From positions 40,711-104,710 of the IMG/VR virus record IMGVR_UViG_3300044712_000336: DNA of 64,000 nucleotides; one strand, given 5' to 3'. Below the pieces are notes generated by a model. It ran no database searches. It had not been told where the DNA came from and was given only the letters and a program-made list of their open reading frames with translations. Shown piece by piece: positions 2,209 through 26,400 of this stretch; positions within the stretch are counted from its first letter, which is position 1, and every line of letters begins with the position of its first letter. The DNA is from a virus. Both the position numbers and the translations under genes were made by a program.

Positions 2209-2643
2209 ATGATACAAGTAAGGCAAAATGTATTTGAAACTAATAGTTCAAGTACACATAGTGTTAGTATTTCTTATGAAGGTGATTTAACAGATATTCC
2301 AATACCAGATGATAATGGAATAGTTCATGTAGATACAGATGAATATGGGTGGGAAGAATGTGAATATAATGATTTATATAGTAGATTATCTTATGCAGCT
2401 ACTTATGCTTTAAATTATGGAAGTGAAGAAAATAAAGAGTTATTAACTGAAGTTATTAAACAATACAGTGGTGCAAAAGAAGTATTATATGATCATAATA
2501 ATAATCCAGTTTATTGGAAACATGGTTATATAGACCATCAAAGTACAGACACAGTGGCTGATATATTTGAATCAAGAGAAAGTTTAGTTAATTTTCTATT
2601 TAATCCAAATTCATATTTTATTACAGATAACGATAATCATTAA
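2209..2643 (+). CDS. FETNSSSTHS-motif protein A, function unknown
   Basis: Start moved from the GTG at 2179 to the ATG at 2209, which aligns with the paralogous N-termini: MIQVRQNVFETNSSSTHSVSI. C-terminal GYIDHQS...FLFNPNSYFITDNDNH. Confidence 0.8.
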   Translation: MIQVRQNVFETNSSSTHSVSISYEGDLTDIPIPDDNGIVHVDTDEYGWEECEYNDLYSRLSYAATYALNYGSEENKELLTEVIKQYSGAKEVLYDHNNNPVYWKHGYIDHQSTDTVADIFESRESLVNFLFNPNSYFITDNDNH

Positions 2644-2647
2644 AATT

Positions 2648-2890
2648 ATGATACAAATAAGAAATTCAATTTTCGAAACTAATTCCATTAGCACACATAG
2701 TATTACTATTTGTACACCAGAAGAATGGAGTAAATTAGAGTCTGGTGACTATGATGGATTAGATGAAAGATTAATAGAGAAGTTTGAAAATAATTATAGA
2801 GATTCATATATGGAAACATATAGTTATGAAACTACTACTCCGGGTGGTGAAAAAATAAGATTATTTGGAGATTATGGAAGGGATGGTTAA
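2648..2890 (+). CDS. FETNSSSTHS-motif protein B (variant FETNSISTHS), function unknown
   Basis: MIQIRNSIFETNSISTHSITI; ends FGDYGRDG. Confidence 0.8.
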   Translation: MIQIRNSIFETNSISTHSITICTPEEWSKLESGDYDGLDERLIEKFENNYRDSYMETYSYETTTPGGEKIRLFGDYGRDG

Positions 2891-3353
2891 TATAAGAAAA
2901 AATGTGTTTGAAACAAATAGTAGTTCAACACACTCCATTACTATTGGCAATATAAATTCAAAACCATTAGAATTATTAAAAGATGGTATATTAAATCCAC
3001 AACTACTAATTGATAAATATGTTGCTTATAATTATGAATATAAAATAGTATGTTATAATTTAGAAGAGAAATTAGCGTTAGTAACATTATGGATTTTGTG
3101 TGATAGATGGAATGTTACTGATGAAATTAGAGAAGAATTATTAAATATAATTAAAGAAGAGTTTAATATAGTTAAAATATTAGATTTAAAAGAGTTAAGA
3201 TTTTCTTCACAAGATGATGACGATGATATATTATTTGATTATGGTTATGAAGAAGAAATTGATATTATTTCAACAAAAAAGAAGTTATATGAATTAATAA
3301 ATATTATAAAAGATGACAGTAGATTCATTAGTGATATCAAAGAAGAAAGATAA
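2883..3353 (+). CDS. FETNSSSTHS-motif protein C, function unknown
   Basis: Start moved to the in-frame ATG at 2883: MVNIRKNVFETNSSSTHSITI. Overlaps the stop of gene B. Confidence 0.8.
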   Translation: MVNIRKNVFETNSSSTHSITIGNINSKPLELLKDGILNPQLLIDKYVAYNYEYKIVCYNLEEKLALVTLWILCDRWNVTDEIREELLNIIKEEFNIVKILDLKELRFSSQDDDDDILFDYGYEEEIDIISTKKKLYELINIIKDDSRFISDIKEER

Positions 3354-4227
3354 ATTAGTAGAATATAAAAATGGTAATACTACAGTTACTATATATAAAG
3401 ATGGTACAAAAGTAAGAGAGTTTGAAGGTATTCCAGTAGTGGAACATCCTGAAAGTATGGATATTAAAATTACTAATTATTGTGATTTAGGATGTCCATA
3501 TTGCCATGAAAATTCTACTATTAAAGGAAAACATTCAGATTTATTCTTACTAAAGGAAAAATTGGATATACTTCCAGCAGGTATTGAATTAGCATTAGGT
3601 GGTGGTAATCCATTATCTCATCCAAATTTAGTACAATTTTTAGAATGGTGTAAAACTAAGGGATTTATAGCTAATATAACTATTAATGAAAAACATATAA
3701 ATAAGTATAATGAATTAATTATAGATTTAATAACAAGAGATTTAGTCAAAGGTATTGGTATATCTGTTACTGAAGGAAATATTAATCTTATTAAATCATT
3801 ATATAAATTATCATCAAATATAGTATTACATTTAATTGTGGGAATAAATACTATTGAACAAATTGAAGAATTATGTACTATAAAAGGTATAAAAGTATTA
3901 TTACTTGGGTACAAAACATTTGGTAGAGGAATATCATACTACTCTCAAGATATAACAGATAATATTAATAAATGGTATAAACATCTTCCTACATTAGTAG
4001 GAAAGTTAGTATTAAGTTTTGATAATCTGGCTATTGAACAATTAAATGTAAAGAGATTATTTACATCAAAAGGATGGGATAGATTTTATATGGGGGATGA
4101 TTTTACTTTTACTATGTATATTGATGCAGTAGAACAACAATATGCTCCTACAAGTAGATCTGATGATAGACAATCTTTTAAAGATTATAATGTAATACAA
4201 TATTTCAAAACATTTAAAAATAAATAA
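3313..4227 (+). CDS. Radical SAM enzyme (no SPASM/twitch domain evident)
   Basis: CxxxCxxC motif YCDLGCPYCH, GGE-like ELALGGGNPL, NITIN, GIGISV. Start uncertain (ATG 3313 or GTG 3331). Confidence 0.92.
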   Translation: MTVDSLVISKKKDKLVEYKNGNTTVTIYKDGTKVREFEGIPVVEHPESMDIKITNYCDLGCPYCHENSTIKGKHSDLFLLKEKLDILPAGIELALGGGNPLSHPNLVQFLEWCKTKGFIANITINEKHINKYNELIIDLITRDLVKGIGISVTEGNINLIKSLYKLSSNIVLHLIVGINTIEQIEELCTIKGIKVLLLGYKTFGRGISYYSQDITDNINKWYKHLPTLVGKLVLSFDNLAIEQLNVKRLFTSKGWDRFYMGDDFTFTMYIDAVEQQYAPTSRSDDRQSFKDYNVIQYFKTFKNK

Positions 4228-5048
4228 TGGCACAAAGGATAGCAATATTAGGTGAACCAAATTCAGGGAAATCTTATAGTAGATCTTTTATAACAAATTC
4301 AGATAGTGTATTTGTACTAGCTCCTTCAGATAAGAAGTTATATTTAAAGAAATCTGATGGAAATAGATTAGATTATTTTAATATAAGTACACAAAAATTA
4401 AAAACTACTGAAGAAGTAGCAAAAGTATGTAATAAAAATACTGATGATATTTGTGGAATAATTGATGTACTTACTAAAAAAGGTATAGAGTTTTCCTGTA
4501 CTGGAAATTATATAGTTAATTATCGTATAGAAGATGCAGGAACAATACTTAATATAATTAGTAGTAAAATGATACATATAAATACAGTAATAATTCCAGA
4601 TTTTACACATTTTATTAGTGCAGAAATAAGTGAAATAGATTTTATTAAACGTAAGTCTGGTGGTGATGCTTTTGCTAAATATTTAGAACTAGCAGCAAAC
4701 TCATTAAATTCCTTTATTAAGAGTGTAGATTTATTACGTAAAGATTTAATTGTAGTTACAGAGTATCATATAGAGTATGATGAAATTGATGGAAATTATC
4801 ATATATTTGTTCCTGGAGGCAAGATGATGGTAGAGAAGTTTAAATTAGATAGTTATTATGATTATATATTATATACTAAATATATAGATGATAATAATGT
4901 AAAATTCAATGATAGGTTTAAATTTGTAGTTAGACGTGATGGAAAATATAATGCACGTTCTTCTGGTATATTCGGTGAACAAATACTAGTTCCAAACAAT
5001 TTACAAATTGTATTAGAGAAGGTTAGAGAAGATAATGGTATAAAATAA
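4227..5048 (+). CDS. P-loop ATPase, AAA_24/Sak4-like (conserved crAss-like replication-module ATPase)
   Basis: N-terminal Walker A ILGEPNSGKS, VIIPDF, YHIE, GGKM...DSYYDYILY, ARS...VPNNL layout. Confidence 0.75.
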   Translation: MAQRIAILGEPNSGKSYSRSFITNSDSVFVLAPSDKKLYLKKSDGNRLDYFNISTQKLKTTEEVAKVCNKNTDDICGIIDVLTKKGIEFSCTGNYIVNYRIEDAGTILNIISSKMIHINTVIIPDFTHFISAEISEIDFIKRKSGGDAFAKYLELAANSLNSFIKSVDLLRKDLIVVTEYHIEYDEIDGNYHIFVPGGKMMVEKFKLDSYYDYILYTKYIDDNNVKFNDRFKFVVRRDGKYNARSSGIFGEQILVPNNLQIVLEKVREDNGIK

Positions 5049-5240: not shown

Positions 5241-6056
5241 ATGGCTATTTCAAAAAACAATTTGTCAAAAGCATTAGAAGTTAAAGAACGTAAAGTACGT
5301 GAATCTAAAGGTACAGTTAAACCTGAATATAAACCAATTGATAATACAAATAGGTTTGTAATTTCAGCTCAAACAATGAGGGGTTCTGATAATATCAAAC
5401 TTAATGGTCGTATTTATGATCCAACTGTAGCAGAACTTGCTAAATCTAAAGGTAAATTGAAAGATAACTTTGCTTTCCTTCATGGTGAAGCTGGTAAACT
5501 ATTCTTAGTTGTAGTTGATGCTGATAAAATGGCACATATTCAAGGTTTGAATGGTAAGAATGCAGTATGTGGGCAAGAATTTGCTGAAACTAAAGTAATT
5601 AAAGGTGAACGTGCAGGTGAAGTAATGGTAGTTGATCGCAGACGTCAGTTAAACATGGCTAAATTTGGTATGCCTGTATCAGATTCAAGGAACTGTCAGA
5701 AATTTGAAATACCAACAACTGGTAAATTGATTGCTAATACTGTTGCTACAATTGGTAAAGATAATGTAGAACGTATTCTTGATGGTAAGAATCTACGTTA
5801 TGTAATTGGAACTAAAGTAGAACTTAGTATTCCAGTTGATACTAATAAGTTGATTGATCCTTCATTGGAAGGTAAAACTAATGCTCGTTATGCTAAAGAA
5901 GATGTAACATTTGTAGCATTTGAACTTACACCAAAGTTTAAAACTGAAGTTAAAGGTGAAGAAGTAGTATCGACTACTGAAATTGAAAGTGAAGAAGTTG
6001 AAGTTGAAGTTGAAGTTGAAGTTGAAATTGAAAGTGAAGAAGAAGTAGAAATCTAG
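5241..6056 (+). CDS. Hypothetical protein with basic body and acidic EV-repeat tail; probably highly expressed
   Basis: Has its own promoter and terminator. Visible CGT/GGT/GCT codon bias. C-terminal EIESEEVEVEVEVEVEIESEEEVEI. Confidence 0.75.
   Translation: MAISKNNLSKALEVKERKVRESKGTVKPEYKPIDNTNRFVISAQTMRGSDNIKLNGRIYDPTVAELAKSKGKLKDNFAFLHGEAGKLFLVVVDADKMAHIQGLNGKNAVCGQEFAETKVIKGERAGEVMVVDRRRQLNMAKFGMPVSDSRNCQKFEIPTTGKLIANTVATIGKDNVERILDGKNLRYVIGTKVELSIPVDTNKLIDPSLEGKTNARYAKEDVTFVAFELTPKFKTEVKGEEVVSTTEIESEEVEVEVEVEVEIESEEEVEI
5979..6042 (+). repeat. (GAAGTT)x5 in-frame tandem repeat flanked by a direct repeat GAAATTGAAAGTGAAGAAG
   Basis: Hexamer copies at 5994-6023; flanking copies at 5979-5997 and 6024-6042. 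Confidence 0.85.
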
Positions 6057-6080
6057 GTTAAACCAACCTATATAACGATG

Positions 6081-6117
6081 AGGGTATTATCTTAATTGGT
6101 AATACCCTTTTTTATTT
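6081..6117 (+). terminator. Intrinsic terminator
   Basis: AGGGTATTATC-ttaatt-GGTAATACCCT stem followed by TTTTTATTT. Confidence 0.85.
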
Positions 6118-7001: not shown

Positions 7002-7259
7002 ATGAATTTTGGACAAGCAATTGAAGCCTTAAAAGAAGGTAAAAAATTACAAAGATCTGGATGGAATGGTAAAGGAATGTTTGTATATTATGTTCCTGAT
7101 AATACTTTTAAAACTTTAACAGAAGTAGCTAAAACACATTTTGGTGATGAATTAAAATTTAATGCTTATTTTGCTATAAGGAATGTAAATAATACAGTAA
7201 GTATGTGGGTTCCATCAATTAATGATTGTTTAGCAGAAGACTGGACAATTATAGAATAA
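7002..7259 (+). CDS. DUF2829 family protein (Tad2-like anti-defence signal sponge)
   Basis: MNFGQAIEALKEGKKLQRSGWNGKGMFV...WVPSINDCLAEDW is the characteristic DUF2829 pattern. Confidence 0.88.
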   Translation: MNFGQAIEALKEGKKLQRSGWNGKGMFVYYVPDNTFKTLTEVAKTHFGDELKFNAYFAIRNVNNTVSMWVPSINDCLAEDWTIIE

Positions 7260-22846: not shown

Positions 22847-23037
22847 TGCCAAAAAAACAACCAAAGTGGATAGAAGATGAAGTAAATACTTCTAAATCTA
22901 ATAATATATTATATATGTTATGTAGATGTGGTGAAATGGTACGTATGTATATTAGTGATAAATTTGGATCATGTCATAATTGTGGAAATGATGTACCAAA
23001 TGATGAGTATAAAGAAAGAATTAGTTACGAAGAATAA
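22846..23037 (+). CDS. Small zinc-ribbon protein
   Basis: CRCG...CHNCG. Confidence 0.65.
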   Translation: MPKKQPKWIEDEVNTSKSNNILYMLCRCGEMVRMYISDKFGSCHNCGNDVPNDEYKERISYEE

Positions 23038-23059
23038 ATAATAATTAAATTAAATTAAA

Positions 23060-23275
23060 ATGGATAAAATATTTGAAGGTATTAGTACAATATTAGCTTT
23101 TATATTGGTCATAATAATATTAGGATTACTATTAGGTTTTCCTATAATGTGGATGTGGAATTATATAATGCCTGCTTTATTTGGGCTTAAATGTATAAAC
23201 TTTTATCAAGCATTAGTACTATATGGTTTAACCAGTATTCTATTTAAAGACGGTATGTCTTCAAAAAAAGAATAA
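23060..23275 (+). CDS. Small membrane protein
   Basis: Long hydrophobic stretch; MWMWNYIMPALFGL..I.FYQA pattern. Confidence 0.75.
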   Translation: MDKIFEGISTILAFILVIIILGLLLGFPIMWMWNYIMPALFGLKCINFYQALVLYGLTSILFKDGMSSKKE

Positions 23276-23280
23276 ACAAT

Positions 23281-23335
23281 AAATCCTCACTCAGTCAGCC
23301 ATTACGGTTGATTTGAGTGAGGATTTTTCTTTTTT
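23281..23335 (+). terminator. Intrinsic terminator closing the + arm
   Basis: AAATCCTCACTCA...TGAGTGAGGATTT long stem followed by TTCTTTTTT. Confidence 0.85.
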
Positions 23336-23460
23336 CAATACTATATTCCATTATCAAAATAATTGCTTAATATCAAAGATAAATGATAATAAACAATATA
23401 TCAGATAAGATGTTCAGTGTCAATGAACAGTAATAATTACTGAACTTAACATAATAAACC

Positions 23461-26400
23461 TTATTTCAAAGTTTTGAATGGATTATCACTAAATAAAGTT
23501 TTATCTGATTGAGCATCTTTATACCATTGATTAACCATTGCAGGATATACAAATATATCTAATACTTTTGATTGATATGGTATATTACCTTTTTCATTAC
23601 GTAATTCATTCATACCTAGTCCTGCACCCATAACATGAGTTACATATCCAGCAGTATTAGTAATTGCTTTAGATAATTTAGTTACTACAACAGGACTCAT
23701 TGCTGTTTCTAATGTTCTTGCCATATCACTAACATTCCATATTTGAGATGGATTATCTATAGCATATTGTCGCCACCACTTCTTCATAGTATCATCATCT
23801 GGTTCATCATCATATTTCCATTTCCATAATAATATAAAAGATAAATACATTGCAAAGTTAATACCTAATTCTAATATATTCTTCTTTTGATCATTTGTTA
23901 ATTTTTTCCATTCATGTGATTGTGTATATCTTCCAAGTGAAGCATAAAATACAAATAATTTCCTTAATGTAGTTATTCTACCTTCAGCAGTTCTAGCTTT
24001 CCACTCTAACACTGGTTCTTTTATACCACTAACAGTTCTTACTTTTAATTGATTAAGTTCAGTTTGTATATCTTCATAAGTATAACCATAATACCCTAAT
24101 TCTTCTTTATACCTTAATCCACCAAATTGTCTTCTCAACATTACAGGAAGCCATTTCTTTAAACTCATCATTAGTTCCCCAATAACAGTAGAACCAAATA
24201 CACTTACTTCATCCATTCTGTAAGCACCTTGCATACCTTTATATACTTCTTTTAACCTTCTTATTTCTCTTGATGATAGTTCATTAATAGGTTCATAAGT
24301 ATTTGGTGCAATTTCTATCACACCTCTAGTACTACCTGACCAATTTACATTACCTTTACCATCAGTAGTATAACTATCATATATAGATTTAGATTCACCT
24401 ACTTTTGGTTTAAATAATGATTTACCATATTTTTGTATATCTTCTTCAGTATATTTATCTTTAGTATGTTTCATACCATGTAATTGTGCTGCTAATACTA
24501 TATATGACATAGCATCATCTGGTAATGATTGAAATATATATGCCCAATTATTAACATCCCATAATTTATTACGAACAGATACTTGCATATCATAAGGAAC
24601 AGTAAAATTATAATCTTCTGGTAAGTACCTCATATCTCTAGCAAGTAACCATAACTTATTATTAGTATGTGTACCTTTCATATAATCACCTACAAGTTTT
24701 CTATATTCATTAATACCAAATTGTAAATCTGTTGTAGTAAAATCAATTTCATTACCAGTTATTCCTGCAAATGCACGTTTAGCAATACTATCTTTAATAG
24801 CATTTTGATATGTTATTAATGAACTGTGCATTGCATTACCTATACCTTGTTTAAATCTACCTGCCATCATAGACCTAGTTGACCATGATTGTAAACCTTT
24901 CAATACTTTTAACCAATCTATCTTATATACTCTACTACTACCAAATGATACTTTATTTTCCTTTAATAACTTCTCATTTGTTAATTCTTCTATCTTTAAT
25001 CCAGTTAATTCATAAGGTACAGTTCTACGTAAATATTCTAATTCATTCTTTAATATAGGATTATTACTTTGATGTTGTGCCATTTCAACTACAGATTTTA
25101 ATCCTTTACTAAGAATATATATATTATCCATTTGTTTTTTCCACTCAATATTCTTAACAAATGCGTTAAAAGCTAATCCTAAGTTATCACTATAAAGAAA
25201 TTGTTCGTCCATTCTTGAATTACCTAAATACTTCAATGGTAAACCACTTCCAAGATTATCATAATCTTCATAATTATAATCTAAATATCTTGTAAATCTT
25301 CTATTAAACCATTCTTTAAAGTTTATAAATGGATATGCTGCCCAACCTATAATATTATTTAATACACCTGTTCCTTCACCGCCTAATATTTTATGTCCTG
25401 TTTTATACTCTAATTCCTCTGGTTGTTCCCATATCTTTGGAAACCATCCTTCATAGTATTCAAAATGTCGTCCAGAATCTTTGTCATTATATTTTTGTAG
25501 TAATGTTTTATCTTTAGATTCATCACCATCTATATTAGATTGATATGGTTGATTTAAGTATGCTATATTATCACCTCTATCTTTAAAATAATATGATGAT
25601 AAATAATTTGCTTCAATAATCCAATCTTTCTTAGTCTGTGTCATTTTAGAACTATTCCATACAGGAACATCTTCATTCTTTACATAATAATTACCTATTA
25701 AAGTATAATTATCTTTATTCTTAGATTCCATAATTTTATCATCACTCTTATATGCAACTATTAACCTCTTTCTGTTATCAACAGCACTTCCACCTACTTT
25801 TTCCTTTACAGTAGCAAAATCATATAATCCTTTTCCATTATGAGTACTGTAAACTAAATTTTTTAGTATTCTACCTACAGGAACATTATTCTCTTTACCC
25901 CATTCTTTTTGAAGTTTATTCCCAAGTTCTTGAAATTTAGACATCCTAAGTCTATATAATTTATCTGCTCGATTACCATTCTCATCTTTATATACTTGAA
26001 ATGCTTTTAATTCTGGTAACTCAAATTCCTGCAATGATGCAAAATATCCTTCCCAACTTCCTAACATCTTAGATTCATCTAATCTTGACATTAAGAACTC
26101 TTGTTCATCTACTATACGTTTTTGTATATCTAACTTCTGTCCAGTTAGTAACAATAGTTTTGTTGTAATATCACGTGATTGTCTATTTAATGCAGGAACA
26201 AGTTTACCATCTTTATGATATGGATCATTTTTAATATCATTTAACTTATCTTGTATTCCTGCAAGTTGTTTTATATATTTATCTTTTAAATAATCAGTAG
26301 TATGTTCTGTATCCATTGAATTAGTCATAGTATCTTGTATATCTTTCTCTAATGAATCAGCAGTTAATCCTCTAGTATAATCTAATGGATTAAATATATT

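Follow-up and report, generated by a model that had tools for sequence, protein, structure and literature searches.

A phage module pairing a compact radical SAM enzyme with unrelated proteins that share an N-terminal tag: a candidate protein-modification system

Why would a phage start three adjacent and otherwise unrelated proteins with nearly the same 21 residues, and place a radical S-adenosylmethionine (SAM) enzyme right behind them? This arrangement is found in a 64-kb stretch of the IMG/VR virus record IMGVR_UViG_3300044712_000336 (the whole stretch analyzed, hereafter the window). The window makes up the latter part of a phage genome that is complete at 104.7 kb, has direct terminal repeats, and contains about 25% G+C. 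An earlier interpretation made from the letters alone (the sequence-only reading) had proposed that the N-terminal motif, here called the tag, is a recognition or modification site shared by several client proteins of the enzyme. We found that the tag and the enzyme are linked almost obligately, in both directions, and that the tag is predicted to enter the barrel of the enzyme. The best explanation, to which we give a probability of about 0.58, is that the enzyme is a maturase modifying the tag of several client proteins. The module would then be a self-contained phage protein-modification system, and probably one not described before.

One tag on unrelated proteins

The three clients (A, B, and C, in gene order; Table 1) have in common the tag consensus I-R-x3-FETNSSS-x-H. 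Their first ~21 residues are near-identical and the remainder is not. Once the tag was removed, hhalign gave a probability of 0.8% for B against A, and of 0.2% and 0.1% for C against A and B, respectively; at this level, the three bodies show no detectable homology to each other. The picture of three adjacent genes that begin alike and then diverge, drawn in the sequence-only reading, therefore holds in the list of open reading frames (ORFs) and at hhalign probabilities below 1%. So does its argument on codons: the serine positions are written AGT TCA AGT in A, TCC ATT AGC in B, and AGT AGT TCA in C, and since the codons differ among the copies, conservation and selection are at the protein level.

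Within this genome, the tag is confined to these genes. A degenerate DNA pattern of the motif has exactly three matches in the window (at 2233, 2672, and 2907) and none in any of 100 dinucleotide-preserving shuffles, and a tag-profile search of the whole 104.7-kb genome returned exactly these three tags. Among 148 tags, E10, T11, N12, S13, and H17 are 100% conserved, and R5, F9, S14, and S15 are 99% conserved; position 7 is a glycine in only 52% of the tags, and no glycine is invariant. A tag profile searched against 1.84 billion proteins matched 7341 clusters (50% identity); for the best 150 matches, the tag was nearly always placed at, or within a few residues of, residue 1. Judging from these sequences, the tag is portable across unrelated bodies. 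One metagenomic protein of 383 amino acids (aa), P0260, has a guanylate-kinase-like P-loop domain (PF00625; 7.4e-9) ahead of a tagged class-A-like domain. Its tag is internal and preceded by a methionine, so that the fusion may be genuine or the product of merging two genes. Two other proteins carry two tags each and look like merged adjacent genes.

The 113 tagged ORFs retrieved from related loci fall into class A (74), class B (25), class C (3, including client C of the window), and many singletons. Tagged proteins are acidic (median isoelectric point [pI] of 4.47) and have 58 to 295 aa, where 58 aa is a single outlier and all others have at least 80 aa. Client A belongs to phrog_28997 (5.9e-14), a family of no assigned function that B and C match only over the tag. 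None of the three gave a match above cut-off in Pfam or NCBIfam, nor any match in PADLOC. Searches with client A gave 375 homologues of about its own length, all lacking an informative name, and the longer forms of class A (253 to 304 aa) show no Pfam domain in their extensions. The residues invariant in the aligned homologues of A are R5, T-N-S-S-S-x-H, a G-W pair, Y-I-D-H-Q (within GYIDHQS), and a C-terminal D-N pair, the latter falling within a near-invariant DNDNH. Client B, which is short and looks partly disordered, has an acidic middle and a conserved C-terminal F-G-x-Y-G-x-D; neither B nor C has the polar motifs of class A.

The AlphaFold2 (AF2) model of client A is of high confidence (predicted local distance difference test [pLDDT] of 90.7). 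Tag residues 1 to 14 are its sole low-confidence part, and residues 15 to 20 form a strand of the class-A fold. This fold has no counterpart among solved structures: Foldseek against the PDB returned nothing with an E value of 0.001 or lower, the best VIA-align match among 48,161 chains had a Z of 2.4 (root mean square deviation [rmsd] of 4.7; 64 residues aligned), and neither client A nor the class-A profile had a significant sequence match in the PDB. In BFVD, the model matched only uncharacterized members of its own family and, at a weak score, a likely enzyme fusion. The possibility that the motif is simply a structural strand of a known fold, raised by the sequence-only reading against itself, thus fell away, with no PDB fold matched (Z of 2.4) and bodies that are unrelated.

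In the protein Atlas, a class-A-like fold (TM of 0.63 to 0.66) is also part of a phage cluster of 261 aa with a Tad2-like domain. The window itself encodes an 85-aa Tad2-like protein (Thoeris anti-defence 2; PF11195, E value of 9.2e-28) at 7002-7259 on the + strand, and no Tad2-like ORF was found near the module among the 143 loci examined. These observations give a possible hint that class-A bodies act in counter-defence.

Linkage of enzyme and tag in phage genomes

The co-occurrence proposed in the sequence-only reading was examined from both sides. Starting from the enzyme, 77 of 82 IMG/VR loci have at least one tag ORF (one to four) within 6 kb, and starting from class A, 77 of 80 loci hold the enzyme, although these counts are not independent events, since some contigs are in both sets and many of the phages are near-identical and Lak-like. 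In the first set, the tag ORFs are always on the strand of the enzyme and almost always directly upstream of it; in the second, the enzyme is on the strand of the client and downstream of it in 76 loci. In one of the five enzyme loci lacking a standard tag, a variant tag is encoded on the strand opposite the enzyme; another of the five is truncated by the end of its contig. Loci from metagenome-assembled genomes (MAGs) that have a true homologue of the enzyme carry the tag in 40 of 49 cases. An all-against-all clustering of the ORFs of 85 loci recovered the enzyme in 85 and tagged proteins in 81, and revealed no third conserved neighbor family around the pair. The linkage of enzyme and tag is near-obligate in both directions.

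A search of one genome per species across 185,579 prokaryote species found the enzyme in 49 MAG contigs and in no isolate. Given this distribution, and since MAG bins often contain phage contigs, the enzyme looks essentially phage-borne. The hosts of the carrier phages include cyanobacteria, gut anaerobes, enterobacteria, and a thermophile, and the pair takes several forms in named phages (Table 1), among them a natural fusion in the Salmonella phage Arash. The fused protein, gp146c, is annotated as a "methyltransferase," which is probably wrong. The RM378 enzyme is a distant one (28% identity) and lacks the N-terminal sheet described below; a tagged protein of 256 aa, p106, is nevertheless encoded two genes downstream, which indicates that the pairing outlasts the loss of the predicted docking element.

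Other phages carry more distant radical SAM proteins. Klebsiella phage KP15 gp135 and its relatives (L143:3806-5008) are radical SAM proteins of 400 aa that are common in Slopekvirus-like phages. These KP15-type enzymes have about 23% identity to the enzyme of the window and a Cys-rich C terminus, and no tag is found nearby; they were rejected as members of the same system.

A compact radical SAM enzyme

The enzyme passes the Pfam model of radical SAM proteins (PF04055, 31.3 bits for a cut-off of 29.5) and has the CxxxCxxC motif at C57/C61/C64, in agreement with its first identification as a radical SAM enzyme. It belongs to phrog_16999 ("Fe-S oxidoreductase"; 5.9e-76). In NCBIfam, no model came near its cut-off, and none of the 22 weak matches was an anaerobic sulfatase-maturating enzyme (anSME). 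More than 4300 clusters of homologues were found, and the best 120 listed are 56 to 65% identical to it. The protein has five cysteines in total, of which only C57, C61, and C64 are invariant in 26 homologues; an auxiliary cluster is thus absent. Ahead of the barrel, an N-terminal element contains an invariant Y, N-G-N-T, and D-G-x-K-x-R, and GGGNP may stand in place of the GGE-type SAM-binding motif.

In the AF2 model (pLDDT of 85.9), the N-terminal element forms three strands (14-20, 23-28, and 33-37) and the barrel is apparently eight-stranded. Closed eight-strand barrels are more typical of radical SAM enzymes that act on small molecules. The closest solved structures are SkfB (Z of 18.2, rmsd of 4.0, 266 residues aligned) and SuiB (Z of 17.5, rmsd of 4.3, 278 residues aligned), with Foldseek E values of about 1e-6 and a sequence identity of 12 to 15%. 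No other structural match extends over the N-terminal sheet as well. Next come PqqE, BlsE, EpeE, viperins, and anSME at Z of 14 to 16, in a range where many radical SAM structures score (13 to 17).

Predicted docking of the tag

The enzyme was co-folded with client A, with supplied alignments for both proteins and with the 4Fe-4S cluster and SAM included. The interface score (ipSAE) was 0.86 (0.88, 0.82, and 0.86 in the individual runs), against 0.02 for the best of three controls. In the calibration of the method, 58 of 80 solved complexes came up to this mark, as did 2 of 110 mismatched pairs; the supplied alignments and co-folded ligands depart from that calibration. The partner had a pLDDT of 70 or more, and 62% or more of the contacts were shared between runs.

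This co-fold, a test proposed in the sequence-only reading, places only the tag in the barrel. Client A contacts the enzyme only via residues 1-15 and 19-23, and the contacts of lowest error are those between tag residues 2-7 and the edge strand of the N-terminal sheet (enzyme residues 30-36). The enzyme positions contacted are 30-39, 92-96, 119-123, 146-149, 169-173, 194-196, 229-238, 256-263, and 280-281; those in the barrel are the ends of barrel strands, and many of them are invariant in the family. The predicted geometry is that of a peptide substrate in a radical SAM barrel.

Proposed mechanism and alternative explanations

A module would couple a single compact radical SAM enzyme to its co-encoded clients, of which there are one to five (three here). 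Tag residues 2 to 7 or so, around the invariant arginine, would add a beta-strand to the edge of the N-terminal sheet, with the first residues of the tag acting as a leader on a minimal recognition sheet, while the polar core E-T-N-S-S-S-x-H would enter the barrel beside SAM and the 4Fe-4S site. The 5'-deoxyadenosyl radical would then take a hydrogen from one of the core residues, with the invariant Thr, Asn, first Ser, and His as candidates, and the covalent change would mature proteins that are acidic and otherwise unrelated. Since there is no auxiliary cluster, the candidate chemistries are drawn from what single-cluster radical SAM enzymes do: a viperin-like dehydration of serine to dehydroalanine (-18 Da), oxidation to an aldehyde (-2 Da), epimerization (0 Da), an intra-tag crosslink (-2 Da), or radical cleavage.

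The observations behind the maturase reading are the conservation of the tag, the two-way linkage, the fusion, the unrelated bodies, and the radical SAM motifs and fold, from which we infer that the tag is covalently modified. The earlier claim that the motif is a shared recognition site on several clients is supported by the near-obligate linkage and the Arash fusion, and agrees with the predicted docking. Several points weigh on the other side. The 1:1 fusion and the tight translational packing fit a stable complex at least equally well; the auxiliary clusters of the closest peptide maturases are absent, and the apparent barrel has eight strands; the five fully invariant polar residues of the tag could be active-site residues and not targets; and the class-A body has enzyme-like invariant D-H and N-D-N motifs of its own. 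Moreover, the docking is a model prediction, obtained outside the settings of its calibration, and the modification is our deduction.

Several of these points favor one alternative, in which the tag is a peptide that docks on the enzyme and completes its active site, and each tagged protein would be one of several interchangeable, stoichiometric subunits of a radical SAM holoenzyme. Subunits of one complex had also been offered as an alternative in the sequence-only reading. Such a holoenzyme would act on a third molecule (a nucleotide, a nucleic acid, or a host protein) bound by the invariant polar residues of the tag, and the different bodies would give different targeting or a second activity. 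Client-enzyme fusion and overlapping genes are classic signs of subunits, and both the 100% invariance of five polar residues and the apparently eight-stranded barrel lacking an auxiliary cluster suit this explanation. In phages whose hosts differ widely, the best 120 homologues listed still share 56 to 65% identity with the enzyme, a degree of conservation that suggests a small-molecule chemistry under tight constraint. A guanylate-kinase-like domain is joined to one class-A relative, and the module is found among replication genes. Yet only the tag confidently touches the enzyme in the co-fold, leaving the body undocked, which is unusual for an obligate subunit, and the predicted tag fills the barrel where the substrate of a holoenzyme would sit. 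Up to five unrelated bodies accompany a single enzyme, and the 85 loci hold no conserved third gene that would supply or use a product. On balance, we regard a holoenzyme as unlikely, although it is the alternative to be taken most seriously.

The enzyme could also be an activase, as in glycyl-radical enzymes, leaving on the tag a radical or radical-derived cofactor used catalytically by the client bodies. A small single-cluster enzyme resembling the activases of pyruvate formate-lyase (PFL) and NrdG, one enzyme for several clients, and the enzyme-like invariant residues of the class-A body are what such a system would show. The tag, however, offers no invariant glycine (with the 52% at position 7), the NrdG2 model scores 23.5 bits against a cut-off of 131, classes B and C are devoid of the class-A polar motifs (B being short and seemingly in part disordered), and the system is present in a phage of an oxygenic cyanobacterium; we consider an activase improbable.

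Even less probable is a pathway like those of ribosomally synthesized and post-translationally modified peptides (RiPPs), where the core of the tag would be modified and cut off as a small peptide or cofactor and the bodies would be scaffolds or followers. The closest solved enzymes are indeed RiPP maturases, and several precursors with one recognition sequence are also found in multi-precursor RiPP clusters. But no protease, transporter, or tailoring gene is conserved nearby in the 85 loci, the class-A and class-B bodies are strongly conserved, which a disposable scaffold would not need, and the conserved part is at the extreme N terminus with no leader ahead of it.

Finally, the tagged proteins could be paralogous enzymes in the same pathway as the radical SAM enzyme and never contact it, the polar and invariant motif being their own catalytic loop and residues 15 to 20 a strand of the class-A fold, but this we find equally improbable given bodies that are not homologous, a natural fusion, a co-fold at 0.86 against 0.02 for the best of three controls, and a motif that is the only low-confidence part of the monomer model.

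Significance

What would the phage gain from a maturase of this kind? Many phage inhibitors of host proteins are small and acidic, and so are the clients. A tentative proposal, to which we give somewhat less than even odds, is that this is a widespread phage system in which a minimal radical SAM enzyme installs a radical-derived residue (a warhead or a protein-derived cofactor) on unrelated acidic tagged proteins, possibly arming them as inhibitors or enzymes against the host in early or middle infection. If true, virus-encoded protein modification would gain a new class, one whose tag is portable and could be transferred to other proteins. A modified tag would represent a new radical SAM protein modification made with no auxiliary cluster, together with a new minimal recognition element.

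The scale is considerable (7341 tag clusters and more than 4300 enzyme clusters). Pfam and NCBIfam have no model for the clients and PHROGs assign them no function, so that the proposed activity would assign a role to a large set of phage genes that now have none. A tag of 17 to 20 residues and an enzyme of 300 aa could also become a handle for protein engineering. Three cultured phages carry the system (Ma-LMM01, RM378, and, in fused form, Arash, which grows on a laboratory strain of Salmonella), which makes genetics and biochemistry directly accessible.

The locus and its neighbors

The genes of the module are tightly packed, and the third client gene overlaps that of the enzyme, as the sequence-only reading had noted. 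The spacing between successive genes is +4, -8, and -41 nucleotides (nt). There are 4 nt between A and B, B and C overlap by 8 nt, and the overlap of C with the radical SAM ORF is 41 nt if the latter starts at the ATG and 23 nt if it starts at an in-frame GTG. On the + strand, no terminator-like site before 6080 separates the genes of the module, and the three clients and the enzyme are therefore likely co-transcribed. The first + strand terminator-like site outside a gene downstream of the module is at 6080-6109, a strong hairpin of 12 pairs with a T-run that follows a gene ending at 6056.

Table 1. Coordinates of the module in the window and forms of the pair in named phages
Feature	Position	Strand	Remarks
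Client A ORF, class A	2209-2643	+	144 aa from ATG; pI 4.25
Client B ORF, class B	2648-2890	+	80 aa; pI 4.43
Client C ORF, rarer class	2883-3353	+	156 aa from ATG at 2883; pI 4.56
Compact radical SAM enzyme ORF	3313-4227	+	304 aa; pI 8.1
Client A tag, residues 1-21	2209-2271	+	Residues 2-7, predicted recognition strand; core E-T-N-S-S-S-x-H
Client B tag	2648-2710	+	Ile replaces the middle Ser
Client C tag	2883-2945	+	Read from sequence
CxxxCxxC motif (C57, C61, C64), radical SAM 4Fe-4S cluster	3481-3504	+	Read from sequence; invariant in 26 homologues
Enzyme N-terminal beta-sheet element, residues 18-37	3364-3423	+	Predicted tag-docking strand
GGGNP	3598-3612	+	Invariant among aligned homologues; residues 94-96 in the predicted tag interface
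Microcystis phage Ma-LMM01			gp130 (client), gp129, gp128 (enzyme)
Prevotella phage Lak-A1			Enzyme, then five tagged paralogues
Rhodothermus phage RM378	L142:3983-5798		p108 (enzyme), p107, p106 (tagged, variant tag)
Salmonella phage Arash gp146c (OQ632216.1)	L141:3443-4873		Tag, class-A body, and enzyme in one 476-aa polypeptide

Downstream, a Sak4-like protein annealing single-stranded DNA (phrog_2872; 1.2e-16) is encoded at 4227-5048 on the + strand, its gene beginning at the final base of the radical SAM stop codon. Upstream are a fragment of a DnaB-like helicase (11-688), an AAA ATPase (695-1792; phrog_2376), and two small Cys-rich zinc-ribbon-like proteins (1807-2031 and 2031-2198). The Sak4-like, helicase, and ATPase genes place the module in a replication/recombination block. 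Further along the window, the GC skew and the AT skew flip sign at about 23000-25000, a pattern compatible with two gene blocks, divergent or convergent, that lie on different coding strands.

Comparison with known systems

Which described systems come closest to this pairing? The best structural matches are the RiPP maturases SkfB and SuiB, with their precursors SkfA and SuiA (PDB 6EFN and 5V1Q/5V1S/5V1T). Both have an N-terminal element ahead of the barrel, which the alignment covers, and both act on a co-encoded polypeptide with a conserved recognition sequence. The three-stranded N-terminal sheet of our enzyme aligns with the N-terminal parts of SuiB and SkfB and is predicted to pair with tag residues 2-7, but the enzyme has no match to the Pfam model of PqqD that would mark a RiPP recognition element. 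In contrast to SkfB and SuiB, the phage enzyme lacks the cysteines of the SPASM/twitch auxiliary clusters (one or two such clusters, bound by a C-terminal Cys-rich domain, in SkfB, SuiB, PqqE, and CteB), its clients are folded or acidic proteins of 80 to 300 aa conserved from residue 1 and not short leader-core peptides, and the system is present almost only in phages.

The second comparison is with anSME/AtsB (PDB 4K36-4K39) and the sulfatases, where one enzyme serves several whole-protein clients and acts on a serine or cysteine in a short motif near the N terminus of the client. The structural match has a Z of 13.8 (rmsd of 3.8 to 4.2, 235 to 244 residues aligned). Yet the two auxiliary 4Fe-4S clusters of anSME are absent here, the consensus of the 148 tag sequences has no sulfatase motif (C/S)-x-(P/A)-x-R, and the class-A body matches no solved fold, that of sulfatases included.

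Phages commonly carry pairs of a glycyl-radical enzyme and its activase. The activating enzyme of PFL (PFL-AE) and NrdG are likewise small single-cluster enzymes that act on a defined loop of a partner encoded next to them; their target is C-terminal and not N-terminal, the tag has no invariant glycine such as that of the R-V-x-G-type loop in their clients, and the TIGR02495 model gives 23.5 bits for a cut-off of 131.15. The enzyme also differs from viperin and pVip, with 21.3 bits against a cut-off of 180 for NF038283 and a PADLOC pVip match of 30.6 bits that covers residues 51-152 only.

The families to which the enzyme and client A belong, phrog_16999 and phrog_28997, record neither the pairing nor the tag and have no functional description. 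A literature search with the motif string found no paper, gp146c goes undiscussed in the article on phage Arash, gp128-130 are absent from the main text of the Ma-LMM01 transcriptome study, and the titles and abstracts of the broader literature on radical SAM enzymes and jumbo phages contained nothing relevant.

In the way it works, the module is closest to SkfB and SuiB with their precursors or to anSME with the sulfatases, and it fails the defining features of both. The general kind, a radical SAM enzyme acting on co-encoded polypeptides, is already known. What is new is therefore the enzyme subfamily, the tag, the use of whole-protein clients with an unmatched fold, and a distribution that is nearly restricted to phages.

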